A stretch of DNA of 64,000 bases from Catajapyx aquilonaris (lineage: Eukaryota). Shown here one piece after another: positions 19,437-50,323 of the stretch; position 1 is the first letter of the stretch; each line of letters opens with the position of its first letter. The notes below the pieces were generated by a model. That model was given only the letters and a program-made list of their open reading frames with translations, was not told the origin of the DNA and made no database searches. The translations under genes were made by a program, and so were the position numbers. Location of the stretch: contig KZ538386.1 of the NCBI GenBank assembly GCA_000934665.2, positions 1 to 64,000 on the forward strand, read 5' to 3'.

Positions 19437-19912
<476 letters not shown>

Positions 19913-20184: not shown

Positions 20185-20231
20185 TTACCGCTTCTTGGCG
20201 CTGGGTATCCGCTTCTTCTGGTGCATAAAAT
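20185..20231 (-). CDS. dap: CKI-A coding exon 2 (completes the PIP degron; full protein 180 aa)
   Basis: Acceptor TTTTTTTTTATTACAG| on the minus strand. Splicing gives ...RQRQMT-D-FMHQKKRIPSAKKR*, which aligns with p21 QTSMTDFYHSKRR. Stop TAA at 20185-20187. Confidence 0.85.
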
Positions 20232-21425
20232 CTGTAATAAAAAAAAACATTTGGGATAAGTCCAAGTCACTCATTTGATTTTTTTTTGTGTGTGTGTGCC
20301 ACCACACCCCAATCATATAACAGCCATGTCAACAAACCATACATAATTTCTATGTTGCCCTTAATTAATTTTATTATTAACCCAAATATGTATTTGTTCA
20401 TTGAAATATTTATCAAAAATAATTCACGCATGTAATTAACTGGGGGTGTTTACATCCATTTTAATACTATTTTCGAGCATGAACCCGCGTGACATACAAC
20501 TCGGGAGTATAATCTCCACGTACTCCAGAAACGCCCTCGACAAATTGCAAGCTGCACTCAACTGGAGTAAACATTTAACTGCAATCCCTACACGCTAGAA
20601 TTGGCAGCGAGCCTATCGTGTCTAAGTAGGCCGGTCCCCAGTGTTGCCAAACCCTCCCACTATTTTTACTAGATTCCATATATTAAAAGGACGATTGCAA
20701 ACTAGTCCACAAAAAGGTCACCCTCCCTCTGTCAAGAGGAGTTCCGGGTGTCATCGTGTGTTCTCATTGACGTCACCATTTTTTGCACTTACTACACAAT
20801 ACTATGGCGTCTCACACATGGGGCGTTGAACTCCCTAGCTTCAATCTCGGCTCATAATTCACGCGCTTTTTTTTTTTTTTTTAAATAACCAAGCTTGGCC
20901 TCGGGTTCGTGGGGAGTGGGCCACAAATTGAACTTGTGATGTCACTAAAATGTAGGCCAAACCATAGGGTGAAGCCCATAAGATGTATCCTACGCATCCA
21001 AAAAAAAATGGGTTACAATTTTTCGTACAATTTCCTGGGTGCACAAAAAATTTATTATTAAAAAAAATTAAAAAGCTAGGGCTACTCTCGCACCCGCCTA
21101 CTCTCGATTACTCTCGCCGTGACCTCGCATTAAAAAAAAAAATAAAGACCGGGCCACTTCTCAACATACTCGGCCTACAACTCTCGGGCGTAACACAGTA
21201 GTAGCCCCATGAAGGACTTTAATAAAAAACGGAAAAGAAAAAAAAAAGAAGAAAAATATATGCGCTCCTTGCCCCCTAGACGTTGCCACATTTCCGGCTG
21301 CGAGGTTGCCAACACCTGGCGCCAAAACTATTCCGGGAACGACTCCTTATCAGGGCCGGCTTTTTAACAGCATTCCAGTGACCGGCCTTGCGAACCTGAC
21401 ACCACACAACACTGGGTCAACTTAC

Positions 21426-21921
21426 CGGTCATCTGCCTTTGCCTGCTAGCCGCCGTTGCCGGTCGGGTCCTCAAGCAGCTGGCGGGCGGTTTCGACTCAT
21501 CCGATGCCTCTTCAGGTGGTGGAGGACTGGACGTCGCCGTGGCCTCTACCTTCCGTTTTTTGGGCGGTGCCTCGCCCGACGTCCCTGCTTGACCTCCGGC
21601 CCCTAGAGCCATCCTCCTCAGCCCATAGCTAGGATGCACCTCTCCAGACTGTACCTCCTTCCACTTGTACCGTCCCTCTCTAGGCACACCCGTCTCAAAA
21701 TCAAAGTTGTACTGGTCCGAACTCTTGGCGGTCATCTCCTTCAGCTCCTTTTTGGCCTTCCGTACCGCCTCATCGTGGTCCACCGGGCCAAACAGACACT
21801 TCTTTGCGAGTGACCTCCTGACCCGTGTGTCCTCATCCTCTTCATCTTGTGCCACCTTGATGCTCTGCATCCGACGCATTTCGGCCATATGCACAAAAGG
21901 ATTATACACACGGGCGCTCAT
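21426..21921 (-). CDS. dap: Cip/Kip CDK inhibitor CKI-A (dacapo-like), coding exon 1
   Basis: ORF starts MSARVYNP (resembles the Dacapo N-terminus) in an ACCATG context. CDI domain: AKKCLFGPVDHDEA...YNFDFETGVPREGRYKWKEV...HPSY. NLS-like PPKKRKV. Ends at phase-1 donor ACCG|GTAAGT (exon end 21426). The ORF-track extension to 21364 is intronic. Confidence 0.9.
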
Positions 21922-22027
21922 GGTCGTTCTTACAGGTGGCTACAGTGTACCCAAGTGTTCTTCACAGGGTCAGCGATGACCTCATGGCCAAACTCCACTC
22001 ACAACACTACCACCTACTGTTTGGTGA

Positions 22028-22124
22028 TTCGCGCGTCTAACTGCAAGCGTCGGGGGCTCAACACTTTTCTTTTCAATCCCCCACCACGCCATCCCTCCCA
22101 CGTGACCTGGGAGGGAGAGCCAAT
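22028..22124 (-). promoter_or_regulatory. CKI-A proximal promoter (E2F-like, E-box, CCAAT)
   Basis: TTCGCGCG 22028-22035, CACGTGAC 22099-22106 and CCAAT 22120-22124, 105-205 bp upstream of the ATG. Confidence 0.5.
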
Positions 22125-23072
22125 AGGAGCAGGCCAACGTCACACCTTTTATCTCATCCGCTATGCCGCGCTGTGCTGCCATCTCTCGAAGGGGGCCTTA
22201 AATATATTCAAAAATCCAGGAGGCGTTGGATTGACCTGGACCGGCTATTTATAGGTAACGGCCGTTGCGAGGGCGTCGGGTTTCCTCAAAAGACAACCCG
22301 TGCTGGATGTAATCAGATCGGAAGAACCACAAAGGTGTGCGAAAGACTGGTCCAGCCATATTTCCGTAAGGGCAACGTCGGATATGACGTACGGTACTAT
22401 AGTATATTCACAACCTTGGATATAGCAGACCACTTGGTGGTAGCATATATTATGTATAGTCTATACGTCAAGCTCGGCATTACCTTCCCACTGCTTCCCA
22501 CGCTATAGAAGATACTATGCTATCAAGGACATATCCCATCTGTCACTATCTCTAAGCTTCCTAGGAAGTCGCAAGTTTTGCGCCTCAAAGTTGCTGAACA
22601 CGTGTGCTCAGTTTAATATACTCGAGTCTTAATGAACTGTCGGAATTTTGTTGGGTCACAGAGCTGACCTTGGTTCCCACCCGTACATCTGCCACACCTG
22701 AGTCAGGCAGTTGGGAGAGAAGCAACGACAGCTCCTTTACACTTGCCGAAAAGGTCAAACTAATCTTTTTCTGGTATATTTGCAGCAGATTACAGAATTA
22801 TCTGGTCACTGTGTAATTTACAGGCGAGCTAATTTTGCAATTTTGTGGATAGTTAGGGTCTACGCAGTAGTGTATATTAAATCCATGCGGCAGACAGAAA
22901 TTTTTGTGTATTGTTGCAAAAGTAGTGATTTAGATAATTATACAGGAAACCTCTGTCGTATAGGATGCTGATTTCCGCGGTCCCTTGCAGTTTCTTATAT
23001 CCGGAGTCGATTATGTAAGGTAAAATATGAAATTAAAGTACACCTGTTCATGGGTTTGATGTGGAGTATAGG

Positions 23073-23216
<144 letters not shown>

Positions 23217-26200
23217 TCTAGCTAGCATAAAACTACGCTATTTTACACAATGCCTGAATCAATGTGGGCAAAAATAAGACTCCTATTTTTTTCAGCTCAT
23301 ATTCGTACTGACATTGGGTCTTACTGATTAACCAAATGGGTCGATTTTTATCATAACGATGTTAAGCACGAGCTCTCAAACAGGCCGGAAAAATATTCAC
23401 ACGATATGCACTTCCACTTCGGAAACAACTTCAGGGTTGACCAAAAAAAGAAGAAGAAGAAGAAGAAGAAGAAGAAGAGAAGCGGCATAGTAGCTTTGAG
23501 GCAGGCCTGTATAGGAATTTGATGCGTCTTGGGCACTTCCGGCTCTTCACCCCGTGGGAATGGCTACCCCTCCCTCTGAAAACCCGCTGGGTGTAGGCTT
23601 GGGTTCAAGTATTTCCTAGCAAAAATCATTAATTCTCCAGGGTGACATTGCAACCATCTTAGTAATAAATTTGCATTTTTTCCCCCCATCCTTCAGTGTA
23701 AGTAAATAAAACGTGCAAGCTTTTTGGGTGTGATCCGTATGCAAATGCGTGAGAACTTCCGGTTTCCCTTTGGGCCTGCAACTCGATCCATACTGGTTTT
23801 TTGACATGGACCGATTTCTGGTTCAGAAATAAATGCATGGTAGATTTCTGCTATTTGTAGACTGGTATCATTCACATTTTCCTGTTTACCACATGTAAGT
23901 TAAATCGCAAAAATTATTATGGAAGGATGCTGTCATGAGGGTGTAACATCCTGATGGAAGTGTCAATAATATTATATAGGATTTTTGAGAATCATATGGG
24001 TTTGAATTTTTGAAGGATTTGAGTCGAACCTGAGGGTATTGCAAATTATGTGGAGATTTTTGAGTGACAATTCACCGGATATTCGTCTTGAGGATCCCAC
24101 GGGGGGAACTGCTGGAGGCAGGGGTGGTGGAGGGTAAGAAAAGTTCCTTCACACCTGCATTGAGTCGGTGGGAAACCGGAAGGAGGCTGCTTCCAGAAGG
24201 AAGTGGAAGAACGTTGAATGGCCCTCTCCAAGAAAAGAAAAAGAAGGCCAAGATTAGTGACCCCTCATGGTCAGGTCAACCTGTGACATCACAATTCAGG
24301 TTGGTTTCCGGCTAAACCTGTTCCAAAACCTACGAGACACCAGGTTTTCGCAATATGCGCTACGTAGCTATATGTGTATAGGATGTGAGGTGGTGACGAG
24401 TCAAAACATGTTCTAGCTTGCAGATATTTATTATCAGGTTGTGAGTGTTTATTTTTTTAAAGCTAGCCATGTCTTACAACGTTAATAAGTTTTGCGATAG
24501 TGCTATCGTTTGAGCAAAAATATCATAGATGTTACGCAACTAGTACTATTTTGCAACAGTGCTGACTGCGCTCATGATAGAGACATTACTGATACTATTT
24601 AGTATATTATTATGCTGATGAATACATCAAGCATCTGTTCCGAAATTTAATTGCCAACTAAAGGTCAATGGCACTTATGATTCATTGTTACTTGGCCGAA
24701 TTCGTCAGTGTAACGTAGGAAGAACGCCCACAAACCCTTCCTTCGTGTATAAATTTAATGCACATATGTCACATAACATATGGCCAAATTATTCAGAGGT
24801 GTAGGTGCATGCACTGAATCAGCTTGGCACAAATATGGACTCTCTTTAATCAAATTCTACAACTATAGCAACACCCCAATAAATATCAATCCAGTTAATA
24901 TGTACACCGGTCACGACGGCTAAGGCTTCGTATCGGGAGACCCTGCATGTATCTGCTGAAAGATAGGCGTCGTGTATATCCACCGCGCCGGGAAGGAAGG
25001 TTATTAGGTCATGGGGTAGGTTGGTGCAGCGTGCCCCTGCCACATTCGGTCTCCCATTACGAAAGTCCTTCCGCCACGACTTAATAGGCTCACTTTGACA
25101 ATATCAGTAATGGCTAAGCCTTTTTAAAAAACAACAAACAGCTTGTTGAATATGCGCGTAATGGATATATATATAGGAATTAAAAAGTGCAACCTGTCGT
25201 CTTTGGGTGACGTTTGCTACACAACTTGTGCGACCTTCATTGCACATTGCATTATTATCAGTGCTCGTGTGAGTAAGTCAAGCAATCTTACATCGCAGTG
25301 GTTTCCCCCTCATATCTACCGCTCGAAGAGAAAATATGCATCAAACTTCGTCATGTAGGGAAACATCAAGTTGAAGGTCTCACTTACAATTCAGCACTGA
25401 GTACTGTATATAAGTTATCAGTCTACTTTTTGTTTTGAAATCTTGCAAAAAATGAAACAGTCAGTTCCAAATTACGACTCTAAAATGTCTGAACTCTAAT
25501 AACGCAGGGTCATCAATCGCCAAAATAGTGTGGACTGGTTTTTTTTGGCAAAAATAAATTAGTTTCACAGCGTCATTGTATTGCAAGGTACAGTACGTGC
25601 CCTTGTGCTGAAAATCAAAACTGACGCCAAAATAACAGGCACGAATATGCTACATATTAATTGCTCTCTATATAGGCTACAGTGCAGTTGAGAAAGAGGG
25701 AAAATAAGGTCAAATAAGTTTCGCGCAACAGAGATTACAGTTTTGTGACAGTTAATTTTTTTTAAACGTATTAAACGTATAGTTCTGAAAGTGGTATAGT
25801 GTTGACTATTTATAATGTAGACAATATTTCAATAAGTGAAGACTTTGGAGAGTGAGTGTTGCCTACAGATGAATTGAAGTTAAGTGCAAATTACTGACAT
25901 GAAACGAAAATTATATATTGCTGAACCTAGAACTCGTGTTTTATTGTACATGGATTAATAATAAGTTATGAATGGTAGGAAGTGGCGCATCATTGATACT
26001 ACCCACTCTCAACGGACTAGAAAGGCTCTTGGTTCGATGCCAAACTCGGGTTTCCCCTTTTCATATGGTGATTTCCGGTCACGTTTCCGGTACACTAACC
26101 ACCCGGGCGAACGCTCTAAAATGGGCTTCTTCCGACAGTGCACTTGCACCTCCACCTCCCTTCCACATACTGCATGGTACATTTGCCCTGGCGTTACTCA

Positions 26201-26270
26201 GAAGATATTGTACCACGATGTAACATGTACACGATGGATACACCTCACAAATTGTCAAAACACTACCCGG

Positions 26271-26371
<101 letters not shown>

Positions 26372-26485
26372 GCAGGATTTAAGACGAACCTTAAAATATG
26401 AAATCGCCATATTAATAAAATGTGATTTAATAATTAATTTGCGCACAAAACCCCATTTGACCCCTGGGTGTACATCTGGCAATAA

Positions 26486-26640
26486 CACGTGGGAATCGGT
26501 GGGGCAAAAATTTATCATGTCGTCCCTTTTTCGCATGCGCTTTCTATTTATATCGATCCCAACCTCCTCTGCTCTTGCTCTCCCTCTCTCCCCAGCCCTC
26601 CCCCACACGACGCCCTTTCTGTGTGGCAGTCAGCCGGCAT
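26486..26640 (+). promoter_or_regulatory. Putative CKI-B promoter
   Basis: CACGTGGGAA (26486-26495), CGCATGCGC (NRF1/Ewg-like), TATTTATA next to TATCGATC (7/8 match to the DRE), and a pyrimidine tract, all upstream of the putative 5' UTR donor. Confidence 0.35.
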
Positions 26641-26672
26641 ACGCCAAGGAGAATAGCTGGATAGTTCATAAG

Positions 26673-27127
26673 GTATGTCTATCTGCATTTTGTTTCAACA
26701 TGTGTCCATGGTAACGTTTGACTTAATTGTCACATGTGTGGCGGAAGAGGCCAGGGGTGTTTATCCAAGTGGAAGGGGAAATCAGTGTGGTAGTACCTAG
26801 GACATGGGTTTATGTGCCAGGAAATCCGGATTTGGTGACAAAAATGGTTGTTCAAGAAGGAAGTATTGACATATTGGCAAGTGAGTCAGTATTACACTAC
26901 CTGGGTATAGCGGTCCGTTAAATATGACGTAACAAATCAAAATTCCGCATTTGCAAGCATTATAATATAATGCTTGCAAAATTATCCCAAATTATAAATT
27001 TAATTAGGCAAATGCGCCAATTTACTGGGGAAGGTATGCATCATTTTAATTGTGATATCGCGGATAGGCGCCAACTTTTCTCGTGATAGTCGACTGCCAC
27101 GTTTCAATCGTTATCACTATTTTGCAG
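26673..27127 (+). other. Probable 5' UTR intron of CKI-B
   Basis: Donor AAG|GTATGT at 26672/26673 and acceptor CACTATTTTGCAG| ending at 27127, 45 nt upstream of the ATG. An alternative donor GAAG|GTATGC lies near 27033. Confidence 0.5.
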
Positions 27128-27172
27128 GTGCGTAGTTGACTCAGTGGGTACTACACCCTGACTACACCAGGC

Positions 27173-27454
27173 ATGTCCAAGGACAGAGTTCGGCGGAACT
27201 TGTTTGGGTCCCCCAATCAGGAAGAATTGGCGAAAGAGCAGAAGGCCATTTTGGACAAAATGGCTGAGGAGGATATGAAACGGTGGAACTTTGATTTCAA
27301 AACAGAGACGCCATTGGAGGGGAACTGGCAGTGGGAAAGGGTCACCCCTGTCACCCCTGGGGTGACCCAAGAAGAGGAAGAGGTCAGGTTGCCACCAGAA
27401 CAAGGTGAAGACCAAGGTGAAGATGATGACAAAGAAAATGCAAGGCCTAAGTAA
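27173..27454 (+). CDS. Short Cip/Kip CDK inhibitor CKI-B (93 aa)
   Basis: VRRNLFGSPNQEEL...MKRWNFDFKTETPLEGNWQWERV is a clear CDI domain. An in-frame TGA upstream fixes the start. C-terminus DKENARPK. AATAAA at 27627-27632. Confidence 0.88.
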   Translation: MSKDRVRRNLFGSPNQEELAKEQKAILDKMAEEDMKRWNFDFKTETPLEGNWQWERVTPVTPGVTQEEEEVRLPPEQGEDQGEDDDKENARPK

Positions 27455-27626
27455 GACTGACCCCGACTGACCCAGTTTGTTTATGTCTGCTGGAAAGTAC
27501 GTTTCAGTGAATTCTACATTATATTCAATTTTTTTTACAAGATATTTACACTATACAGAGTGAAATAAGTACTGTGATTGCTAGTCGGAAAAAAATTATT
27601 TCGCAATGAATGTGAAATGTTGTGTA

Positions 27627-27632
27627 AATAAA
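27627..27632 (+). terminator. Polyadenylation signal of CKI-B
   Basis: AATAAA about 170 nt after the stop codon, in AT-rich, UTR-like sequence. Confidence 0.5.
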
Positions 27633-30343
27633 ATACAGTTTATACGGTTTCAGACATTTCATTAACATGTTGATATTGTGTCTGCAAATTTTCGGAAGGG
27701 TAGCAACGATACATGCTTATAATTTGACCTGGTCCACTGCAACATCTCGTGAGTAATCAATTTGCCAACAAAGAAAATGGTTGAAATAACATCAGGCTGT
27801 TGCACTGTAGTCAACTTTCTCACGCATATAAGCAACTTGGATTATTCGTTTTTCATAGCTGACTTGAGTGTGGGAGTTTTCGGTTGAGAGAGCACAGACT
27901 GCCCTAGAGCAACGATGTTCTGGTTTAATTAAGGCTTGCAGGGACAGAAGAAGAGCATACAAGAAAATACCTTGGGGAAAATTTACCTGGGGCAACGACG
28001 CCATAGCAGTGGCCATATTTGGATGGCCTTAGGTCAAAATTAAGACGTTGTAATCAGGACATTTATTTTCCCCTCTGTTTCCCACAGATAAGCCCCCAAC
28101 CTCCTACGGTGTTTTAAATGGCTCACACCATGAGAAAAAGCCGTATGTCAAAGGTGACGTGACTCAACTTGTGTGTCACTTTTTTTTACAATCTCAATGA
28201 AGCACGTTACATGGCAGGATTGTATCGCTTTTCAGGGAGCCGCTCGCATAGAGCGATTCATCGCTGTCGTGCAACTTGTGCTAAAGCGCTTCAAAACGAA
28301 GCGACGTTCGCTAGCGCCTTGAGATAAACTACTTTGTACAATCGATTCAAGGGATTAGAAGAGGGTTAAGCCTAATTGGACGACCCTTCAAGAGCGCATG
28401 TTATTTGCACTTGTCCGTATTTTTCAACAATGAGTGCTACATTTTCGGTCATTTTCCCACAATGTAAAAGACAGCTGATTACAACTCACGGCATATCCTT
28501 TTTTCTGTGACCTTATGACACCAAACTCACTGTGAGAACAACAGCCACCACAGTTCCAGCATGTCACACGTGCAAGGGATTAGAGGCCATATTGGTTGCA
28601 AATGTTGTTTTGGCGACATAACCTGACAACGCCGTTTTAGAGGCTGCCGCCATTCAGTCACTCGAGTGTTGTACTGTACAGTAGGAGGTGGTATTATAGT
28701 GTGTGCTGGTGTCCAAGTTAGGTCCGGTTGCGTCAACGCAAATTAAAGAGAAAATGTACTGTGAATGCATATATGCATAACAGGATATTTTCCCAAATTT
28801 GCTTTCACACAACTGGGCCCTTAGTGTTAAGGGATTTCCACTAATGGAAATGAAAGTGATTTTGCATGGAAACAATCCAGCAATCCATTCCAAGGCGAGC
28901 CATTCAGGAACACGTCAGGAGAAGGATTAGTCACTCGATTTGTAAGTTTTCCATTCCCTTTGTAAATTAACAGTGGAAAGTTTATTGTATTGGATATGGT
29001 CTTGCTTCATGAGAAGCAATCTGCATGAGACGTATATGTCCGCCGGCGGTTCACGTACATATTGGAAACAATTTGCTGAAGCATATGACCGGAAATTAAT
29101 TCAACGCATCTATGTAGACGTGAACAATACTATGACATAATTGGAGATTTCCTCCTTAATTTGACTTCATATAAGTCAAGTGGACAAAATGGACCGCCGG
29201 AACATTTGCCCTCCAAGAAGTAGACCTCTTCTAAAATTTGAGAATCACATAATTATTACATATAATCATGATTTTGTTATGAAGCCTGATCTCGCTACAG
29301 TACCACATTATACAAGTCGTAAAGGTACGCGCAAGTAATCATTTCAATATTTGCACAAATCTCTGGTCAATATTTGCACCATGCCATATCCGAACATAAG
29401 AACCCCCCACAATACGCAGGATCAGATTCCAGAAGCGGAAACTTCATTCAACAGCAAATCTCATTGAGGCTTGCTTGGCGCCAAGCTACCCCACCCCCTT
29501 TCCCATCGTTTGCGATAACACAAGAGGTCATAAACACCGCGACATTTTTCAATCTGCTATGAGCTGTTAATGTTCTGTTGACAATATGCAGAGCCGGATA
29601 CATTCACACATAAAGGTGCCGCTCTACCTTCATAATTCGACATGAACGTAATATTGTTTATGAAGTCGGAAGTATGACGCTTTATTTTAACGCATATTTG
29701 TACCAGGGTGCCTAATAATATCATATAAACTCCGAGCCAATAAAGGCCCTTTATAAGCTAATTATCCCCACCATTTTTTATTCGCATTAGCTGAAAAGGA
29801 CAACTGCAGCATAAAAAAGTCCCCCTTCCATCAGCCTCTTTTTGTTACACATAAGGACGCCCTAGCTGTTTGGCAACCACTCTTCTTTTCACACCACACC
29901 AAGTAACACTGCCGGAAGACACCCACGATAGCACCCTTTCTATTGTGCAACTTCCTACAATAATCAACTATTATTGACCATACTTAGCTTTAGGCCAGCA
30001 TGCGTCATTAGCACGTGTGAATCACACGTATCACCTGGCCATCCATCACTCCACAGGTCCAATCTATCTTCACGCATGTCTTGCTATACCTTTCACAAAC
30101 AGCTGTCCACGTGCTCTATTTTGGCCATTTTTTATAGTACCGGTACCCAGCATCTGGTTGGTTACATCTCGTTGTCCGAACCCATACTTTAGATTCCCAC
30201 AGCTGGGGTGTTCCCACTCTTAAATGGATGATAAAATTGCGGGCGTTCACAAATAGCCCCATTGGTAATCCCCAAATTCCTTAATAACACCACCTGGGAA
30301 GGGTAATACAAGTAGCTGCATCTTCATCCCATCCCCCCCCCCC

Positions 30344-30686
30344 NNNNNNNNNNNNNNNNNNNNNNNNNNNNNNNNNNNNNNNNNNNNNNNNNNNNNNNNN
30401 NNNNNNNNNNNNNNNNNNNNNNNNNNNNNNNNNNNNNNNNNNNNNNNNNNNNNNNNNNNNNNNNNNNNNNNNNNNNNNNNNNNNNNNNNNNNNNNNNNNN
30501 NNNNNNNNNNNNNNNNNNNNNNNNNNNNNNNNNNNNNNNNNNNNNNNNNNNNNNNNNNNNNNNNNNNNNNNNNNNNNNNNNNNNNNNNNNNNNNNNNNNN
30601 NNNNNNNNNNNNNNNNNNNNNNNNNNNNNNNNNNNNNNNNNNNNNNNNNNNNNNNNNNNNNNNNNNNNNNNNNNNNNNNNNNNNNN
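30344..30686. other. Assembly gap (N)
   Basis: N run flanked by poly-C on the left and poly-G on the right. Confidence 0.99.
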
Positions 30687-32995
30687 GGGGGGGGGGTAGG
30701 GGGGGGGGATCAGTGTCAATTGGATAGCATAAAATACTTAGGAGTCACTTAAATGTACAGTTTGGCGGTGGCGGGTAGAACAACCTGATTATTTGATGGT
30801 TGCAACACTGAATTGCGATAGTTTGGTGATTTCAGCGTTTAGGAAGTTACGTCACTTGTTAATCGTCACGTACATATCAGGATGTCACGACAAAAATGAT
30901 GTAATTGTCTTAATTTGTAAATCAAAATAAGGAAATTTCGGTAAGCGGATATGCATGTATGTAGTATATGCTGTAGAAGCATAACATTAGTTAATGGCCG
31001 GAAAGCAGCAATCAACCATGAATTTATTGTAAAGGTGCTTTATTAATTTATTTAATTATTATTATGAATTATTATGAATTATTATTTAATTTAATTTATT
31101 GTAAAGGGCTTTACTAACATGACCCTGGTCCTGGTGTATGATGTGGATGTGAGAGTTGACGGCAATACCCGGGTGCCAGCCATTGTGAATGTCCATGTAT
31201 CAGCTTTCTTCCATCCCTATGCTCCCAGCATCTGGAAAACTGGACGTTCCAGTGGTGAAAGGTCCGTCTGGGCGCGAAACACCTTATCCTCCTTTAAAAC
31301 CAACCAACCATTGTGTCATCAATCCTGTGTGAAACAGTCTCGGCCGCCTTTTTGGCAACTGACCGACCGTCCTACCAGGCGTCCATAAATTGAAAAAACT
31401 GTCAAATGCCAACTATCCAACGAACCTGAGCTGTAACCAGACTCGACCAGAAAAGGTCCAGAAATGGACACAGACGAATCTACAAAAGACCGTGACCCTT
31501 GAACTCGTTCTACCCAGTAAAACATGTCCCACTTGGAACAGCGTGGTATTATATAGTGTTTATGTAGGGTTAGAACAAGAGAACGACTAAAAACAGCAAT
31601 CATATTTAGGTCGGGAGAGAGCCACTTTGGGGAGGGGGGGGGGGGGATTTTAAAAATTTGTGTAAAATATACTATGTAAAATAGCAATTCCAGAATTTTA
31701 GTCGTGATTTGGTCAATTTGGCTAGAGTCGTATTTTCTGTTGAGGATGTGGCTGTAAGCTTCCGGTAATAAAGGCATAAATAACTGCGTGTTGACATTAT
31801 GTAATTTTTTTGGTAATATTTTTAGGTCCGTCCGTAGGGAAATCATAGTTTTCCTCCAGGATGTACGGTCACCCTTGCTATATATATTTTTTATTCGTAA
31901 CGACCACTAGAATGACATTCACGTGGAAACACCCCCAAATATATGTGACGCTTCTAATGAGCAAACGAAGCATACGCCATCCCAGATCCACATGAGATAA
32001 TGCAATTCTCACATATGGTCCCTGGTGCAAGTCTGCATTCACCCCAGCAGACTTGAACCCAAGGGAACGTGGCTGGCAGACGGTATGGGTTCCCCCGCTT
32101 CCCCCATCCCTCCTCTATCATCCAGTTTCCCCTCTAGGGCCACGTGCACACACGTGGTACACAGGCCCCCCATATCGCGTGACACCAACATACCCATGCC
32201 TTTCCTGGAGCTGAAGATGCTGGCCATCCAGTGCGCAAAGCATCCCAGCCGAATTGACGCTGATTAAATAACCCCCCAACAACCAGAGTGCGTGTCCATA
32301 AACCCGTCTGCGACTTGTTGTGGATAGTTGGATAGTCGAAAAGGGAAGCCACCCACAGATGACACCAGCGTCGTCACCCATCAGACACCAAGATGGCAGC
32401 ATCCGGATGGGATGAGGGGATAGACAGGAAGAAGATGGGTCCTTTTAGGAAACAGCTGTCGAGACTCTTCCTGGTGACAGTGACAAGTTGGCAAGCTGTC
32501 TGTGTCGGGGGGCACCCACCAGGAAATTCTAATTTGGCCATAGGCCCAACGGTGGAAGTGGGTAAATTGCACTCTTGCAGACACAGGACCCTTTAGCCCA
32601 GATCTAATGCCGCTTTATCTCCAGCTTCCTCTGGGAACCTGGCTCTGGACAATGCGTATATTGCCATTGTCGATCACGATTGATGATCCATTATTGGATC
32701 TACACACAGAATCGACGCTTATTCTGGAGTGGTCAATGTTATTATTACCTAATGCGGCAGTATATATATATATATATTTTTTTTAAATTACACCCTTGAA
32801 GCCTTCAGGCTTATGTAGGGGGGAGGTTTTTCGACCATTTTCTATCTCTCCGGTGCCAGGATGGAGGGGGGGACAGTGGTGCAAGTGCAATGTCTCATGG
32901 CGGAGGCCGTGTGCAGTCCCCCAGAGGGCTAGGTTGAAAGACGACCCTCTAGGTGCGGGTAAGAGACCTCCCACAAACGCCGCACCTCCTCCAGT

Positions 32996-33186
32996 ATGGG
33001 ACAGGGATAGGAAAGGTAGGAAGCGGCTGTGGCCTACGATTAGGAAACAACTCCGGTATTCACCTGGGGGTGACCGTGGGAAACCACAGAAAACCACGGT
33101 CAGAGTTGCCGGCCTGGGGATTTGATCCCTGGACCTCCCGATTTGCAGCCGGATACCAAATCCCCTCAGCTACTGCTGCTTCGGTT
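32996..33186 (-). mobile_element. tRNA-derived SINE, copy 3
   Basis: Shares long identical blocks with 1930-2116, e.g. GACCGTGGGAAACCACAGAAAACCACGGTCAGAGTTGCCGGC. Confidence 0.85.
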
Positions 33187-33214
33187 AATGCGGCAGTATA
33201 ATAATATGAAATAT

Positions 33215-33403
33215 AGATCACACCCACCGCCTTATCTGAATGCAACCCACTCCGGACAACCCACCGTTCTAACCGAGGGCAGTATGAGATTCGGAAAGAC
33301 GAGTTGTCATATGTCATGCATTTGACACAAGGTACCTCAGAAATTATCACATGCAAGAGTTGTCCTGAGTGGGTTGCAGTCAGATAAGGCGATAGGTGGA
33401 TCT
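33215..33403. mobile_element. MITE with about 45-bp imperfect TIRs
   Basis: CGCCTTATCTGAATGCAACCCACTCCGGACAAC ... GTTGTCCTGAGTGGGTTGCAGTCAGATAAGGCG. Confidence 0.6.
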
Positions 33404-34118: not shown

Positions 34119-34119
34119 C

Positions 34120-34167
<48 letters not shown>
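34119..34167. repeat. (AAT)n microsatellite
   Basis: Read directly. Confidence 0.95.
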
Positions 34168-39798: not shown

Positions 39799-39831
39799 AA
39801 GCTGTGGCTCTAAGGCTTAGAGCCACAGCTT
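39799..39831. repeat. Perfect 16-bp-arm palindrome next to a hAT-like end
   Basis: AAGCTGTGGCTCTAAG-G-CTTAGAGCCACAGCTT, followed at about 39854 by CAGTGCTGGTTCCCAACCTTTTT. Confidence 0.65.
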
Positions 39832-39946
39832 AGAGTCTAAGCAGTCTATAAGGCAGTGCTGGTTCCCAACCTTTTTCGGGTCGCGACCTCCTTTTATGAT
39901 AGTCAAGTAACCTGCGACACCCGGCAGCCTCCCCCCCCCCCCCCCC

Positions 39947-40077
39947 NNNNNNNNNNNNNNNNNNNNNNNNNNNNNNNNNNNNNNNNNNNNNNNNNNNNNN
40001 NNNNNNNNNNNNNNNNNNNNNNNNNNNNNNNNNNNNNNNNNNNNNNNNNNNNNNNNNNNNNNNNNNNNNNNNNNNNN
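39947..40077. other. Assembly gap (N)
   Basis: N run flanked by poly-C on the left and poly-G on the right. Confidence 0.99.
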
Positions 40078-43000
40078 GGGGGGGGGGGAATCGTATCGGG
40101 GTCGCTGAATGTACGGACCAGCTATACTTCCAGTGCCAATGCTGCCACCTATCTGTTTATGGCCGCATTTTCCTGAGTTGCATACAAAATAAGCAGCTAA
40201 CAATTTTTTTCTTGGAAGTGGACCACCTACAAACTTATCAGAAGAATTTGGGCCAGCTCCCGGAAACTGCATTGGTGACCTGCAGGTTCACTTTCGTACT
40301 TTGACAGACAGACAGACACGCAGACACGTATTAACTTCTTCCATCATGTCGGCTCCGACATACCACGGGTATCGCCCATCCATTGTTTACAGCCGAGGCC
40401 ATTTGCCCCTGAGACCCTGCTTCCATCATCAGCCCATTCCTGGAATATCTGGTGACAAACAATACCGAGCGTATCTCTGGAAGTGACCGCCGCGCCGTTT
40501 GGCCCCAGGGCAGACTCACTTTTCAGGCCCCGATTACTCACTGGAATTCACAACACTGTTACTCACTTCCTGACCTTATCGGACCACTTTTGGGAGTGGC
40601 CGAAGACAGAGGTCGAGAAACGTTTTTACCAGATTCACCTGTCCAAATAGTCAGGTGATATCATTCTACCATCACAAAGCACCACCTGCATGCATTCATT
40701 CATAATATGCGCATGATGAATAACATCTCCGATATGTACAAGTACATGTATACACGCATCAGTACCGACACTTTTTGTTTGAAGGGGGTGGGGTATGGCC
40801 AGTATATACCTATAACATTCCGCAAAACGGTTGGCTTACCAAGAAGAGAAACCAACTCTGCCCATTGGTCCAGTACTGTCCGAACCAATCCCAAAACCCT
40901 CGTACCACCCACTGGCCTTGTCTTCTAAATGAGGGCTTTCAGTAGGTGAGTGATCAAATAACAAAAAAATGGGTATCTGCCCATCCCATGTGACCATGAA
41001 TCAACTTAATTGCCAGTGTTGGTGGGTGCCTAACGTTCAGGATAAGCAATTACCCGTGACACTAAGCAATACCCCTGGCCTGGAACATATCCCACAAAAT
41101 GAATTCCACCTTCACACACATGCAGACATGCTTGAGTGGGCTCTTTCCCATCACAAGTGCCGCCTCACCCTTTTACAACATTTGCCCCCTGCAAGATCCC
41201 CTCCAATAATCCAAACGCAGCTGCAGGTTTCCCCAGACCACAATTGTGAAACCAGAGGATATGAAGCCGCAACAATCATAGTTTGCCCTCCGATATCCAA
41301 ACGGGAAGTATGGATTTCCAGCCTTTCCAGCGGGTTGTCCAGTAATTAAGGGGAGGGGACAAAGACATGGGACTTTTTCAGGCGTGACCCCAAGCGCTCG
41401 ATGACAAAATGTTAGCCGCTCTTTTGTGAAGGGTCACCCCCAACCAACTCTTGTGTACCGGGCATGATTGGCACAAAAGTGGTCGGGCGGGTCACCCATC
41501 GATCACCTGCTGATGGTTTGGCAACGTGCACTTCAACTACCCATATACACCACCGGAAATGCTTCTAGATTTTATGTGAATTGGGACAATGGACGTTTCA
41601 TGCATGGCCGATTTGCACTTGGGTCGAGACTCGCATCTTTTCTGCAGGTCAAATGCTCGGGAAACTATAAATCACCAGGCACACTTTCATCTAGTGGACG
41701 CTTACACCTGATTAGACGCTACTGTACGTTACACCCATAGGCAGCTCAACTGCCATGCTTTCAAGCTAAACCATAAATCGGGGTCTTATCATAACCATCC
41801 ACTTCTGAGCCGAACAAGAAATCTGTTCCTAAAGCTCTGGGAGCCCAAAACCAGTAAAACGCATCACCTGCCTTCACCTGACTTCTCAATCAGGTCCTTA
41901 GAGATATGATTTTTTTCCACCTTCTTTTCCTTCTGGGTTCCCCCTCTATTCGGCGCCTTATCTCTGTGGCAATTTCATGAGAACGTTCGGGGCGGAGTTG
42001 GTCTCACGTGTAAGGCCCCCCCATCCACACTAAAAACCATATATACCGGACTACAAGGCGTCCTATTGAACCCCTCACGTTTCGACCATTCAGCAGACAA
42101 GTGGGTCTGTTGAGGACAGAAAGCGGAAGGAAAAAGTCCGTTGCTTTCCATCACCATCTTAGATTATGATCCGGAGAGGGGAGCACTGGGAGGACGCCTT
42201 CCACAAACAATCCAGGACCAAGATGGCGGAGGATGATTTCGCTATGGGGTGTCCTTGCGGGGAACTAATGGTGTTAGAATGGGGCCGCAAGGAAACGAGA
42301 GTCTGGAGCACGCCTCTTCACACTGGAAAATGAGATTAAATGGAAGCCCACGGTACATGGTATTGTTGACGATTCTGTCGTGCCCCCCTGCAGTGGGATG
42401 CACTTGACCATTTTTTAGCCTGATTTTTTTTTTTTAAGCAGAGGGGGACGTGTGGTTTCTTCAGTTGAGCAGGCTAATTGGGACGGGACAATTGCTTGGA
42501 GTGGGTTTTATTTGCAATGGGTGAGTCAGGGGTGTACGCACTCAAATCTTGAAATCAGTTCATCCACAACATGATTGTGTACGTGGCATCAGTGATGACG
42601 AATTGGAATTCATTAGAAGTCACGCCATCTTATCTTCCACTTCCTTTTTGTGTCAGGTGCAACAACGTTCTGGTTGGGTCTTCCCAGTCATGTGTGTTTG
42701 TCTCGTGCTACGGACTTGTTATAGGACCAGAAACCACGAGGGTTGGTTGCAAGGCAGCAACTTGCATGTCTAGGTTGGGATAGTGCCAGGCACACGCTGA
42801 CAAGCAGATTGCACGCGGATATGGACAAGCTAATAGAGGAGGAAATGAGACCAAAACACATCCCGCACCTGCCTGGGGGTACCGCCTGCACGCATTCACA
42901 AACGCACTGGAGCTCTACTTGTTGGTTTGAATTATTTTATTGAACCGGAACATAGACGCGACAATACGTCGCTTCGGTGCTTATGCAAATGGGAATAAGA

Positions 43001-46000
43001 ATATCGAGGTTCCGGGAAATAAAAGTGTGATTGTAAATACCACAAGTTGCTGGGTTCGCAGTCACATCGACATCCTCATTGTTGGTGATAAAGGGAACTT
43101 CCAGGATGAAGTGATAAAATGAAGTCATGCACGCGTTTCTGTTGGCGAGGATGAGTTCGACGTAACATGTTGCTGACACCATGCCTCAACACCCATCACA
43201 TAGATGTTATTTTTAATCTCACGGGTTGTATTACGTATGAAGGATGAGATGCAGAACGTCCGAGTCATATTTTTGTCAGAGTTGAAATAGGTGGTGTTGT
43301 GTGAAATAGAGGCTCTTTCGTAATGAGTAAGACAAACTTGCAGGGTAACTCTTGGGTGCCATATGAGAAATTTGTATATAGGGGTATCATTCGGTCTCCG
43401 AATCCTCGTTACTGAGATAATTAGATTTATCTGAAAATGTACTCCCTTTCATTTTCTTATTAAAAATTAACATTCTGTAAAAAAATATAATAGTGGTGGT
43501 TATTCACACCCACTAGACGCTAGAGACTAGAATAACAAGCTTTCTCTAAATTATTTTCACTATATAGTTTTCTGCTGAAGCTAAATTGTGCGCTTGAAAT
43601 ATCACCAATTTTCGAGTGAAATGTTTCCCCCAACTGGCTCAGTCAATTAAACCATGTAACTAGTTTTCTCTCTTGAGTGATATATTGGTTCAAATCCACA
43701 CAAAAATCCCAAAGAATTGAGTAATTGGGTCAGTTGAAAGAGAAAGGGCGTAAGTTACTTTCTGGGATGTTTTTGCTGTGGCACATCACGATAATTTTTA
43801 GCGAATGTGATTTCTAATACAGCAATGTTAGGAAAAGAGTGAAACCAGTTTTTCCCTTTTATTTTGTACCACAAAATCCTGGATTTTAACGTTGCTTTCC
43901 AAATTTGCTATTTAAAATTATCACAGAAGACACCAAAAACTTCCGGCCAATAATTTTCACTATTACAGAAATGGCACATGGAACACAATTTCGCCAAACA
44001 GGCACATTTTTGTGAACATACTCCACCAAACACCCAATCGAAATCTAGATACAACCAAGAAAAAAAATGAGTTACACCTTAGCCCTATTATTATCTGTTC
44101 GGCCTTTACAGCAACTGTCTACCACTAATGAAGCCACATGGACTTTCGACCCAACTACCAAGTAGAGTGGTGAATCATATTATGAGGAAAGCCTGAGTTG
44201 AGGGGGGGGGAGACAAATAGACCTTTCTGCACACATAACTCCAACAAATACACATTACATTGCCATTAACCCTGTATAGCGACCCAGATATTCATCAGAC
44301 CCAGGACTAAAATATTCAATTATCAAATAATTAAAATCAACAGCAATTATCACGTGAACTTTTCCGACTGAATAGCATTAATATAATATGCAACTTGTGC
44401 CCTAGAATGAGGTAACGTAAATAAATCAATAAATAAATAATATGCAACCTGGCCTGTAGTTTCAGACCAATTATTATCCGATACTTTCAGGTAATCACAA
44501 GCTCAAGCATCCTCAACACCCAATAACATTCATCCCATCACTGCACTGGTACGCCCTACATTTAAAACCGAATTGGACTCAACAGAGCACAAAATGAGTA
44601 CCAAACCCCGCCTGTAATTTTGTCACCCATTTTCCATGGTCACCCCTAGAAATAAGTAGAAACAAGGGTTAGTCCAGGTCACGGTGTGTAGCTGAGCGAG
44701 AAGAAAAGCGAAGATGAGATAGGTACGGATGAAAGGGGATAAAAACCACCATAAAAGGAGACTCGGATGATGGCTACTGCTTCCGAGGAGTTCTGCATGG
44801 TTCCTCTTCCACGACGGCTTGGAGCAGGTGCATGCAGGGATGGATGGATGCTGCTTGTTTTAAAGAGGGGGAGTCCTAGAAGGAATCGTGCAAGATTGGT
44901 CCTGCACAAGCATACGCCCTTCATTTGCACTTGAAAAGGATGCGGGGGGGATACACGCGTTAGTTGCACTTCATCCTGTTTCTTGACAACCGGGAGGAAT
45001 ATTTTTACCAAGATTCTTCTTCTGTTCCAAAGAAGGCAAGCGAGTCGTGTTGACAACCGAGAAACAATTAGGGGCTGATTTGAGAAATGGCGTGGAAATT
45101 CAATCTTCATACGGCAAGCTGGCACAAATGTATTGCTCGGCAGGAGCAGTCATGATGTGTAACAGAGGGAAGCCCATTTGAGATAACAATAGGGATGGAG
45201 AATTCACCGGAATTCAGCTGAAAGCAAGAAATCAGATTGGTTGATATTTTAAATACACTCCTCTATTTTCATCCAGCTGTAATAGTGTGTCTTCATGTCA
45301 TAATCAGTTGGAAAAATTTGAACCAGGTTCGTGCAGGACATCATCTGTGAATAAAATAGAAAAACTGGTTCCTCAGCTGTGATTACGGTTACTTCATTTC
45401 AAACTAATCCATACGTTTTCAGTTGGTCTATTTCGGAATGGGCAAGGTGAGTGACCCCCAAGATTCGTGTTTAGTCTCAACTTGTGAGGAATTTTTGGGA
45501 GCACCAGTGGGAGAGAAATCCAGACATCCTTCTGACGCCTGTCTACCTGGCAGGCACCAATTGGGGTGTGGAAGAAGGAAGGGGATGAATCACCCAATGG
45601 GCCTAAGTTTTTCCCGTAAATGGACTCCCACTGGGTTTGGAAAGTCAAGTGGAAATGACGGTTACCACCAAAAAATATTTTCAAATCAAGAACCTGCAGT
45701 GCAAAACAATCAGAGGCACAATATGGTTGAAATTGAGTTAAGCATACTTTCTCATAAGTTAAGTCTGGTACAACCATAGAAATATTGAACAAAAGGAATT
45801 CCATGAGGATGATGCAACTATAAATTACTGATACCCCAGTGTGCTATCAATATCAGAACTGATGGGAAAAAAAATTTAAAATCAGGTAATAACAGGTCAT
45901 GTGCAAAGTAATTCGGAAGTGAGGTCAGAGTGCAAATGTGCAGATTAAAACGTTAACTGCAGTGAAGCGAAGGGAGGTTCTTGGAAAGGGAAAAACTGGC

Positions 46001-47485
46001 CTAGGGTAGCTTCGGGCAATCCAGACCGGTAATTTAACCGAAGCATGGGAATTTCGTCTGGGCGAAATGGCCTGATGCAACTCGGAGGTCAGTGGTGGTA
46101 TTTCCGATGCACGTGGTCACGCTGAGTTGCTGGGACTTGATTGGGATACTAAGTAGTTTACAAAACACGCCATGGTTAAAAATTGATATATATTTTTTAT
46201 TGCTATCGTCACCGATTTTTATCGTGTCATTACACACTACAGAGTGCGTACATAATACTTTTTTATGGGATAAATAGCTCTAATAACATGTTTAAGTGCA
46301 CTTATACATTGCTGATCTGCTGTCAAGACTGGACGAGATCATTTGCAAGACTAGAGCGATGTAATATTATCTGTTAGTACAAGCGATAGTATAGTTCTAC
46401 AATGATTGAGAGGTTACATTTTGAGTTATAATGAGAACAAAATGATACTCTAACATGATAGTCATCAATATATGTATATGGCACTTCATATTGCTCAATG
46501 ACTTCATATGCAAGCATGTACAATATGGAATTAACTCTGGTGCCACGCAATGCACAGGAACATAATGTCCTGCACATCCCAGTGATTATAAGGATTATGT
46601 ATGAAAATATTCTAATCTCACTACATGATAAATGAATTGGCAGGAACAAGTCTCATCCTATATGAGGTAGCCATTCCTTAGGGCGACAACTGTTTCTCAG
46701 TCGATTACAAAATACAGTAGCAGGTGATATTTCCCCTTTGAGCCCGAGTGTCCCTAACAAGCAAGGCCATTTTACAACGGTTGGAACATTATGCATCCTC
46801 CAGCTGCTATTTCCATGCCAGGACCTTGAGAAGGTTGCTCCAAAGGCGACCCACGTCACTCTTTTTCACGCTGCTGCTTATTCCATATCACGTCTGTTGG
46901 AGGGTGACCCCCACCCCCCTTCTAACCCTCCCTCAAAAACCTCTAATGTCTTCTCAGGAAACGATAGTGTTGCTTGAAAAAATAAAATAAAAAAATAATG
47001 CTAGGCACCACCAGAGACCTTCAACTTTTCGCGCCAAACCGTGTCCTTCATAAAACCGGCCCTCTGTCTCTAGACCAGGTCACACCTGCCGGAATTGCTG
47101 AATGTGATGCAACGCCATACACCCTACTACATGCCAAAAAACTCTGAAAATTACGACATATTCAGCTTACTTTTCATGAAAAATGAGACAAAGCTGTACG
47201 CTTGCTGTGTGTCATTACGACAAAGTCAAGACTGTACAGCTTAGCACTATATACATTAATGAATGGTCAAGTAACAATTGTATTGACTATTCTATTGTTT
47301 GAGCTTTTTCCTTAACAATTTAGCTTGAGCTCACGACCAAAATAGCACAACATAAAACGAAGCTTAAAGCTTACATCCGAAGTCAGTCAACGGACTTTAA
47401 GATCACTGGATCACCATTTTTATGCAACTTTTCATAATAAATAAATAAGTCGAGTCTCCTCTTTGGCGCGGGTGCAGCTGCATTC

Positions 47486-47604
47486 TCACGACGATTGTCT
47501 TGGGTTCGACCTTTCTTCCTCCTCCTCCTCCTCCTCAGAACTGCTTCCTGGAGAGGCAGATGGTCTAGAGAGCAGACCAGCTGGTTTCCGGATTCTCATC
47601 AAGT
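47486..47604 (-). CDS. CKI-C coding exon 2 (full protein 145 aa)
   Basis: Acceptor TTGCTGTTTTTTGCAG|. Splicing gives ...YTHT-D-LMRIRKPAGLLSRPSASPGSSSEEEEEEEERSNPRQSS*, restoring T-D-x-M-x-x-basic-basic as in CKI-A. Followed by AU-rich, UTR-like sequence. Confidence 0.72.
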
Positions 47605-49248
47605 CTGCAAAAAACAGCAAAAAAATAATCCCATATGTCCAGTCCAACCATTATTTGCACTTAATCCAAGACCAGTAGCCATGGATGACCTTGCACCTCC
47701 GCAACAATTGGGATCAGGGTCGAACAGCTAATATGGCAAAAGGCAAGGGGGTGGTTTTTGCGAATTGTCCCCACCCTACTGCTACTAACCCCCAGCATCC
47801 ACTTGTTGTCCTTGGCACAGCTACCACTAAGATCTACATATTATCCCTGTCAAGGCCGGGAGTCTATAACACTCTTTCTTTGGTACACACTCATACCCCG
47901 TTATTGGCGGGAACACACACTCACCTGTCTGGTATATTCAAAAAAAGGTGATACCGGTACCTCAAATTCAAAACGCGGAAGTCCGTTAAAACTGAACAAA
48001 GGTCCGGATTTACTTTCAAAATTCGTTTCTTGTTATCATCCATGTTTTTTTTTCGTTTTTTTTTTTTGGAAGGGGGGGAGGGGGGTGTTGTTAAGACAGG
48101 TGCCCAAGCCGGCTTGGCCTTCTCCTTTATGCACCTCCCGGAAATAACAGGAGATGACGCAATGTTCCGGCCCAAAAAACACGTTTCTTCCTACCCTGCC
48201 CCTTATTATTTTCTTTGTCAATGACGTCAGGGGGACTAGTCAAAAGGGGGAAGGGAGAAAGAGGAGTCACCCAAGGAGATTTTGCGCGCGAAAAAGTACC
48301 GTGACCGCTGCTTGTTGAATCATACACATGAGTCTAGGAATATTTCCCGCCACTATGACCAAGAGAAGGAAAAAAATAATAATAATAGATTTTCCTGTTG
48401 AAATATGACAAAGAGTCCACTCGACTTTGGTGGGACAAAAAGGTCAAACAACATCTATTTTATCAGAGATTTTTCTACCGCAAACATCCGATTAAACGCT
48501 CGAGTCCTGGACAGAAAGGCAATTGAGACTGTAGATTAGAGGTTGAAAAAGTTGACAAGTGATCATGAGTAATAAGGAGTCAATGACTTACAAAGTGACT
48601 GGGCTGATAAGCCACCCCCCTGGACATACACTCATTAGGGGGCGACATGATAGATGGATCAATGGGTGGGATAGCAAGAGTGGCGCAATTTACGGGCTGC
48701 TGACCTGCCAATTTTTTTTTAAAGTAATATATCAGTTACAAGGTAAACAACATATGTCCAAACAAACAGCCACATAAGCACGGCCGTTTGTAATATCCCA
48801 ACATTTTCACCCGTTATTTTCAAAAAGGGTCATGCCACACTCACTACCAACTTCCCATCAGCTTTCGACCAATAGCACGTTACGTAGGCAGCATGTGAAC
48901 CGGTGGGGGGGAAAAAAAATTCAAAATTCGAATCTGGTTAACGGCTTCTTAGCCTCCATACCACGCCGGATTGTAGGCTTGTCCAGGTAGCAACTACATA
49001 CATATTTACTGTCAGTACAGTACTGAACGTGCGTCCAAATATTTATGCAATAATATTCATAAATATGCATTATACCGGTACCGGTATATATAATATCTAT
49101 ACATATCTAATACCGTATTGTATATATAATAAAACGGAGCGACTTCAGTATATTATGTAGCAATTAGCTGGCGCAACTACTCCGATGTAACTAATATTAC
49201 TGCTCCGTCAGCAAAATATATTTAAAAAAAAATAGCAATGAACCTTAC

Positions 49249-49567
49249 CGGTATGCGTGTATGGCAATGTGGATTCCCTGGACTCTCGGCTTCTGCGACT
49301 CTTGATCGGTCCGCACGAATCATCCTTGACCGGTGCCTCAACGCCGTACCAGTCGTACCGTCCAGGCAGCACCTTTTCCTTTTCCGGGTCAAAATTCCAC
49401 CTCTTGGTAAACTCCTCCCACGAGTCCAGGTGTGCTTCGGTAGCCAGCTCCTCCGCCTCCTTCATATCCACCGGTCCGAATAGGCACCTTCGTGTGTTCC
49501 GGTACCGCATTCGCAATACCATATCCACCTCTCGTAGATCCAACAACACCACGGACTTTCCCAGCAT
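49249..49567 (-). CDS. Cip/Kip CDK inhibitor CKI-C, coding exon 1
   Basis: TRRCLFGPVDMKEA...FTKRWNFDPEKEKVLPGRYDWYGV CDI domain. Phase-1 donor ACCG|GTAAGG at the same T-(D) position as in CKI-A. Confidence 0.87.
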
Positions 49568-49650
49568 CGTGACCGTTACAAGTTCAAACCTTGGGTCCCG
49601 CCAGCAGTCTAGTGACTAACGTCTCCCGCGCCTGACGATTATGAACTGGT

Positions 49651-49730
49651 TTCAAATATAGCGGGAACCAATCAGAGCGTCTGGTTGGCAAGTCACGTGA
49701 CCAAGTCCGTTGGCAGCCCAAGCCCCGCCC
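49651..49730 (-). promoter_or_regulatory. CKI-C proximal promoter (GC box, E-box, CCAAT, E2F-N4-CHR)
   Basis: Minus strand TTCCCGC-TATA-TTTGAA (49667-49651), CCAATCA 49668-49674, palindromic GTCACGTGAC 49692-49701 and CCCCGCCC 49723-49730, all 85-165 bp upstream of the ATG. Confidence 0.65.

Positions 49731-50262: not shown

Positions 50263-50323
<61 letters not shown>
50263..50323. repeat. (GAT)n microsatellite
   Basis: Read directly; source of the poly-His ORF. Confidence 0.95.

Follow-up and report, generated by a model that had tools for sequence, protein, structure and literature searches.

Cip/Kip proteins are inhibitors of cyclin-dependent kinases (CDKs) that decide when cells exit the cycle, and they are disordered outside the complex. 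Drosophila contains one such gene, Dacapo. Vertebrates contain three, p21Cip1, p27Kip1 and p57Kip2 (CDKN1A, CDKN1B and CDKN1C), which are unlinked. Their shared kinase-inhibitory domain is composed of subdomain D1 (xLFG), a linker helix and subdomain D2. Here, a stretch of 64,000 nucleotides from Catajapyx aquilonaris (assembly GCA_000934665.2, contig KZ538386.1, positions 1 to 64,000 of the forward strand; hereafter the window) is reported to contain three genes with this same domain, designated A, B and C. Vertebrates and this locus thus have three paralogs each, which differ in their C-terminal regulatory modules.

A local Cip/Kip cluster has its nearest precedent in another ecdysozoan, Caenorhabditis elegans, in which cki-1 and cki-2 are adjacent as T05A6.1 and T05A6.2 (PMC1482691). 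It is a pair and not a triple, and the likeness concerns location only. Ascidians have CKI-a and CKI-b (PMC3946487), and a second cki is described from cestodes (PMC12693960). The main text of PMC11555623 gives at least one Cdkn1 for nearly all phyla. For Cdkn1, its Table S5b lists two entries per species in six species of Daphnia, 3–5 in four Penaeus species, two each in the crayfish Procambarus and Cherax, 4 and 12 in the barnacles Pollicipes and Amphibalanus, 2–3 in spiders and 4 in Limulus (2–4 for spiders, mites and Limulus overall), and one in Hyalella, two crabs and two copepods. This table is the accession list of a presence survey, given without arrangement, gene structure or motifs, and some of its entries may be isoforms. 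A preliminary description of the window had set the three genes against single-copy Drosophila; that contrast is overstated, given these multi-copy entries and the neighbouring genes of C. elegans. A described arthropod Cip/Kip cluster, with its arrangement and motif make-up, was not found in the literature searched.

The window contains exactly three Pfam CDI (PF02234) domains, each scoring over the curated gathering cut-off of 25 bits when the three stop-to-stop open reading frames (ORFs) are searched with the profile of 49 positions. The values are E 2.8e-18 and 66.2 bits for A (profile positions 1–49), E 3.8e-17 and 62.5 bits for B (1–49), and E 4e-13 and 49.7 bits for C (1–47). This search had been proposed in the preliminary description, and its outcome bears out the claim made there of three intact, strongly diverged genes. 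A self-built CDI profile, run with filters off against the six-frame ORFs of at least 20 amino acids (aa) in the window, reveals no fourth CDI domain below E 4. Frames of this length would seldom be open by chance: after mononucleotide shuffling, the frame of A exon 1 stays open in 30 of 20,000 trials, that of B in 89 of 20,000, and that of C exon 1 in 102 of 20,000. The G+C content of the coding sequences is 50–58%, and 58–68% at third codon positions, versus about 42% for the window.

The order and orientation are A(−), B(+) and C(−) (Table 1). The start codons of A (21921) and B (27173) are arranged head-to-head and are 5,252 bp apart. B and C are convergent; their stop codons (27454 and 47486) are 20,032 bp apart, with two N gaps in between. 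The distances of about 5 kb and 20 kb estimated earlier agree with these figures, and the limits then given to the cluster correspond to the final base of the A stop codon (20185) and the initial base of the C start codon (49567). The domains and motifs are shown, as are the structures of the genes and their arrangement. The cluster is real and consists of three old paralogs of the Cip/Kip family, one of the full Dacapo/p27-p21 type and two derived. Systems of this kind are already known.

Table 1. Coordinates of the three Cip/Kip genes and of associated features in the window (a slash marks an exon/intron boundary).
Feature	Coordinates	Strand	Description
Gene A	20185..21921	−	two coding exons
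A exon 1	21426..21921	−	ATG at 21921; 165 codons and 1 base; donor G/GTAAG, phase 1
A CDI domain	21652..21798	−	residues 42–90; KCLFG, YNFDF hairpin, GRYKWKEV strand
A exon 2	20185..20231	−	acceptor ...ttacag/AT with pyrimidine tract; 15 codons; stop TAA at 20185–20187
A-B head-to-head spacer	21922..27172		5,251 bp, no gap; (TAT)47 at 23074–23215 and (ATT)22 at 26271–26336
Gene B, single coding exon	27173..27454	+	93 aa and stop TAA; RNLFG, WNFDFKTETPLEGNWQWERV core, acidic tail
B CDI domain	27197..27343	+	residues 9–57; Pfam CDI
Candidate polyadenylation signal	27627..27632	+	AATAAA, 172 bases past the B stop; pattern only
Scaffold gap between B and C	30344..30686		343 N; C-run left, G-run right
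Second scaffold gap between B and C	39947..40077		131 N; C-run left, G-run right
Gene C	47486..49567	−	two coding exons
C exon 1	49249..49567	−	ATG at 49567; 106 codons and 1 base; donor G/GTAAGG, phase 1
C CDI domain	49346..49486	−	residues 28–74; Pfam CDI
C exon 2	47486..47604	−	acceptor ttttttgcag/AC; TDLMRIRK, Ser/Pro stretch, eight Glu, stop TGA

The pairwise identity among A, B and C is 35–47% over 55–66 residues. It is confined to the domain; the proteins are unalignable elsewhere, and no similarity between the three loci was found at the DNA level. These facts indicate that the copies are either old or fast-evolving. The cyclin-docking motif [RK]-x-L-F-G is kept in all three, as KCLFG in A, RNLFG in B and RCLFG in C, and these align with RNLFG of p27 or RRLFG of p21. 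The W/Y-N-F-D hairpin that binds CDK is likewise retained, as is the strand G-x-[YW]-x-W. The columns without variation (L-F-G, N-F-D, G, W and V) fall on the contact motifs. Divergence seems to have spared only the cyclin- and CDK-binding core in each copy. Judging from the solved complexes of p27 and p21, all three proteins would dock on cyclin via [KR]-x-L-F-G, and the alignment suggests that they would dock on the N-lobe of CDK via the hairpin and the strand.

Gene A is a complete two-exon gene of the Dacapo/p27 type, encoding 180 aa. The product of exon 1 contains the N-terminal motif MSARV, the kinase-inhibitory domain, and PPKKRKV, a classical nuclear signal. With the splice junction ACC G/gtaag ... 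ag/AT TTT, the end of exon 1 and exon 2 jointly encode a putative, near-canonical PCNA-interacting protein (PIP) degron, QRQMTDFMHQKK, followed by a basic tail. The protein P0001 (188 aa) shows 50% identity to spliced A over 190 columns, from end to end. Its end includes RQAQMTEFLVQKKK, which matches the C-terminus of spliced A, and the presence of the same kind of motif supports the splice model. In the Protein Data Bank (PDB), A aligns with residues 28–88 of p27 (E 1.1e-12). A has tyrosines corresponding to Y74 and to Y88 of p27, the latter just past the CDI domain, and among the three proteins only A extends into the segment that enters the ATP pocket in p27.

The signature of PIP degrons is Q/N-x-x-psi-T-D-theta-theta-x-x-x-R/K (PMC3973308). 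The C-terminal motif of A, QRQMTDFMHQKK (Q-R-Q-M-T-D-F-M-H-Q-K-K), agrees with it at each specified position save the second aromatic, which is Met. Crustacean homologs carry an F-L or F-M variant at these aromatics, as A does. Dacapo is destroyed in S phase through the PIP degron that it carries, as stated in PMC5586379 with reference to Swanson et al. 2015. A joins the p27-like tyrosines Y74 and Y88 with a putative, p21-like C-terminal PIP degron.

Twelve A-like matches were looked up, and the five with names are all from Malacostraca (krill, Halocaridina, Homarus, Oratosquilla and Armadillidium). The Armadillidium protein is annotated as 'Cyclin-dependent kinase inhibitor 1B'; those of krill, lobster, shrimp and mantis shrimp are CDI proteins. 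They share with A the N-terminus MS[AT]RV..P, the CDI core, P-x-[AS]-Y at the position of p27 Y88, and a C-terminal PIP-type end, [TD/TG/TA]-F-[LM]-x-x-[KR], followed by basic residues. The identity is 33–35% over 108–152 residues, and A is shorter, at 180 aa versus 257–304 aa. As the motif MS[AT]RV..P is also present in the p27-like protein P0078, it need not be specific to crustaceans and may be ancestral. From these one-way similarities, A is presumably orthologous to Drosophila Dacapo itself.

Some patterns were observed around gene A. A perfect homopolymer of 472 A lies at 19438–19909, about 275 bases past the A stop (poly-T on the sense strand of A). Three readings can be considered: a genuine long tract, the tail left on the plus strand by a retroposed element, or an artefact of the assembly. 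Upstream of A (22100–22260, minus strand), ATTGG (inverted CCAAT) and the E-box CACGTG are found at most 30 bases apart, 183–203 bases before the ATG. Likewise, such a pair is seen 105–132 bases before the ATG of C (49650–49700, minus strand), and TATAAAT is found at −332 in A and at −180 in B. These upstream motifs are pattern matches only.

In A and C, a phase-1 intron occupies one and the same place relative to T-D of the C-terminal motif. This site, which immediately precedes the C-terminal [DE]-[FY] in the PIP region, is the usual one of the CDI family. P0010, which ends with MTGKLIF and is unspliced, and P0153, which ends with MTEFYSSKKK and is spliced, represent one gene and belong to the same 90% cluster. 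Many CDI proteins of the library end with ...IT-G-x or ...MT-G-x, which corresponds to read-through into the phase-1 intron. Such read-through explains the absence of C-terminal PIP boxes from CDI proteins predicted in public assemblies, a systematic loss in annotation.

Gene B is preceded by an in-frame stop codon 33 bases before the ATG (the ORF starts at 27140). Its hairpin and strand are WNFDF...GNWQWERV, with Trp at the position of p27 Y74. The best PDB match is p21 (6p8h_C, 7.2e-12), versus 7.2e-10 for p27, residues 28–80. There is no aromatic residue anywhere after the core, and neither a PIP box nor a basic cluster. Vertebrate p21, p27 and p57 are all much larger than B, which lacks a nuclear signal as well. 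Where the ATP-pocket segment of p27 would fall, the tail (27340–27451, plus strand) has T-P-V-T-P-G-V-T and then acidic residues, and the protein ends with ...K-E-N-A-R-P-K. T-P-V-T-P-G-V-T resembles a CDK/Fbw7-type phosphodegron and K-E-N a KEN box; both resemblances could be due to chance.

A second exon of B was sought. No downstream PIP-like exon is seen on the strand of B. A scan for phase-1 acceptors and a PIP-like pattern in all frames gave no more than weak candidates, at 27542 (DIY...) and, on the plus strand, at 48159 inside the intron of C. They were judged to be chance matches because six of the eight pattern matches lie outside genes. Possible splice donors in B are two CAAG/GTGAAG sites and one GTAAG over the stop codon. 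B is not a retrocopy, because the part corresponding to exon 2, which would be expected as an in-frame fused PIP part, is absent; moreover, only 5 kb separate B from A. That the p21-like B stems from vertebrate contamination is also ruled out by the identity of 36–57%, over the aligned part, to the 12 top matches that prefer B, seven of them named vertebrate proteins.

Gene C encodes 145 aa with the splice junction ACC G/gtaagg ... ag/AC TTG. Besides RCLFG, it contains WNFDP and GRYDWYGV, and it aligns with residues 29–81 of p27 in PDB (E 3.6e-07). The Y74-type Tyr is kept, and no aromatic residue is found within the next 15 residues. Exon 2 is one of just two minus-strand PIP-like matches behind a canonical acceptor. 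In the stretch P-Y-T-H-T-D-L-M-R-I-R-K, agreement with the PIP-degron signature is limited to T, D and the Lys at +4; other residues stand in place of Gln, of the hydrophobic residue and of the aromatics. By this comparison, the PIP box of C appears to have decayed. The C-terminal end is close to ...TAFMRIRKSKRP of lobster and ...TGFMKIRKRPAS of mantis shrimp.

An aromatic residue of the Y88 type is present in A and absent in B and C, whereas all of vertebrate p21, p27 and p57 have one. It is absent too in 52 of the 154 library proteins in which the position was placed by a regular expression. As the aromatic is often missing in the family, its absence is no special or family-defining mark, and what it means for inhibition may vary from lineage to lineage.

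Probably, A, B and C are real paralogous genes of the CDKN1/Dacapo type which originated by local duplication at the DNA level, with one copy inverted, and then diverged for a long time outside the core. Such local duplication fits the clustering, the intron site common to A and C, and the inversion of B. Several points weigh against this reading. A, B and C are known here from their sequences alone. Word-indexed protein searches with B and C gave no match at E ≤0.01, and only one of the best 150 library matches prefers C. In the domain tree of 26 rows, C has a very long branch (5.3), and in its hairpin Pro replaces the second Phe. B may hold an undetected second exon. The linkage of B and C runs over two scaffold gaps. 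Finally, the meaning of the missing Y88 aromatic for the function of B and C would be an extrapolation from human p27.

The strongest competing explanation is that the genes did not originate by an independent triplication, but represent older paralog lines, shared with crustaceans, with other arthropods or even more widely, and that the cluster is a local survivor of a widespread multi-copy Cdkn1 set. This is somewhat less probable than local duplication and remains a serious candidate. In its favor, Table S5b of PMC11555623 gives more than one Cdkn1 entry for many crustacean and chelicerate species, although isoforms may account for some of them. In that table, the accessions are consecutive in two Daphnia species, D. 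galeata and D. sinensis, and these can be taken as neighboring genes.

The relatives of the three genes bear on the same question. A word-indexed search with A gave a single match, P0001. In a profile search of 1.84 billion representatives, 1392 CDI proteins were obtained at E ≤0.001; P0001 alone stands out, and no close relative of B or C is found among them. The ESM Atlas returned only generic CDI clusters, in which Arthropoda or Chordata are the commonest. The domain identity between A and P0001 is 60%, versus 35–47% among A, B and C, in line with older paralog lines. Among the best 150 library matches, 37 prefer B, scoring higher with it than with A or C. Eight of the 12 top B-preferring matches have names: seven are from vertebrates and one is from a hemichordate. 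Five of the vertebrate proteins are named cyclin-dependent kinase inhibitor 1, 1A or 1-like, and two are named CDK inhibitor or CDI-domain protein. The resemblance of the B domain to vertebrate p21 and the hemichordate protein also points to an old line. On the other hand, no arthropod protein in the best 150 library matches prefers B or C as an ortholog would, and the physical clustering favors a local origin.

Two trees of the domain were constructed, one with 155 rows and a careful one with 26 rows, and neither settles the grouping of A, B and C. The phylogeny proposed in the preliminary description gives only one supported group, A with P0001 (99/92 in the 26-row tree), which fails to join the malacostracan group. 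B is placed beside vertebrate p21 (86/80, not starred). The free tree leaves A, B and C apart, consistent with older paralog lines. Nevertheless, forcing a clade of A, B, C and P0001 costs 12.7 log-likelihood units and is not rejected by the approximately unbiased (AU) test (p 0.216), although it is not the best tree; forcing B and C together costs 10.3 units and is likewise not rejected (AU p 0.251). As far as the domain sequences can tell, an independent local triplication would be neither demonstrated nor excluded by the tree. Of the old, local and independent triplication suggested at first, the divergence (old or fast) stands, and the intron of A and C fits duplication at the DNA level; the independence does not follow from the tree.

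It is unlikely that B, C or both are unexpressed or decaying duplicates with frames open by chance, A alone functioning as a Dacapo. The long branch of C, the change from Phe to Pro in its hairpin, its decayed PIP box and its run of eight Glu would fit such decay, as would the entire lack of a second exon in B and the lack of relatives of either gene in the protein searches. However, 93 and 106 codons are open, which shuffled sequences reproduce in less than 0.6% of trials, and the Pfam profile is covered nearly end to end in B and C with no frame breaks. The residues that survive at 35–47% identity are just the contact motifs. The consensus of the donor and the acceptor in C is intact, and an AATAAA is found past the stop of B. 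Still less probable is an assembly artefact in which C, or the block to the right of a gap, was mis-scaffolded beside A and B: the two N gaps between B and C, with their homopolymer flanks, speak for it, but the 5.25 kb between A and B contain no gap, which makes at least a pair solid, no other sign of a misjoin is seen, and at 35–47% protein identity the copies are far too different for haplotigs or collapsed duplicates, which are thus ruled out.

Both N gaps are flanked by 11–16 C on the left and 10–11 G on the right. This suggests that they are contig ends made from homopolymer reads and not ordinary gaps.

Under local duplication followed by divergence, A would be a full ancestral-type inhibitor, with the ATP-pocket Tyr corresponding to p27 Y88, the nuclear signal and the C-terminal PIP degron. 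The degron would deliver A to PCNA and CRL4-Cdt2 for destruction in S phase, as in Dacapo and p21. B and C would bind the same complexes, inhibit them less completely and escape the S-phase destruction. The outcome would be CDK inhibitors (CKIs) that differ in strength and stability, probably for different tissues or stages. In human p27, phosphorylation of Y88 ejects residues 83–89 while the inhibitor stays bound, leaving about 20% of Cdk2 activity, and deletion of residues 80–94 mimics p27 phosphorylated at Y88 (PMC6459857). Based on this behavior, we infer that B and C could be bound but incomplete inhibitors. Their matches stop at p27 residues 80–81, and no aromatic follows within the next 15 residues, as in p27-KID-deltaC or pY88-p27. 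The latter are engineered or phosphorylated human proteins, whereas B and C are natural, and the likeness is by analogy. It can be speculated, with considerable doubt, that evolution made B and C into delta-C forms of the kinase-inhibitory domain, acting as tight-binding but incomplete inhibitors or as assembly factors, which rival A for the same cyclin-CDK complexes and are immune to S-phase destruction by PCNA/CRL4-Cdt2. If so, T-P-V-T-P-G-V-T and the terminal K-E-N might serve B as phospho- and APC/C-type degrons, CDK thresholds would be set by the ratio of three clustered genes, and gene duplication would do what tyrosine phosphorylation does for vertebrate p27.

No other clear gene is present in the window, as had been described. 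Among 175 non-repetitive ORFs of at least 75 aa, three alternative frames over exon 1 of C were left unscanned, and the 169 further ORFs have no Pfam family over its cut-off, in a scan that is blind to short exons and lineage-specific genes. No Rfam family matched in the window. Between 8000 and 18000, the G+C content is raised to 46–48%, and ORFs of up to 220 aa are seen (e.g., 7949–8608 on the plus strand and 17490–18071 on the minus strand). They match no Pfam family; this block could be an unrecognized gene or repeats. Besides the two scaffold gaps, the window contains five AT-rich trinucleotide microsatellites of 16–47 perfect or near-perfect copies, two inside the spacer between A and B (23074–23215 and 26271–26336) and the others at 34120–34167, 50263–50324 and 57612–57684. 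A dispersed repeat of about 190 bases is present in three copies which are 75–83% identical (1929–2120, 11603–11793 on the minus strand, and 32988–33190). It is possibly a short interspersed element (SINE) and is the sole sizeable repeat family within the window.

The find is modest in that several Cdkn1 genes per genome are already recorded for crustaceans and chelicerates. Work on invertebrate Cip/Kip proteins is mostly based on Drosophila, with its single gene, and on the pair in C. elegans. The cluster can be considered as a natural dissection, in which A keeps the ATP-pocket Tyr, the nuclear signal and the PIP degron, and B and C have lost different modules. The division of labor among CKI paralogs outside vertebrates could be studied in such a case.

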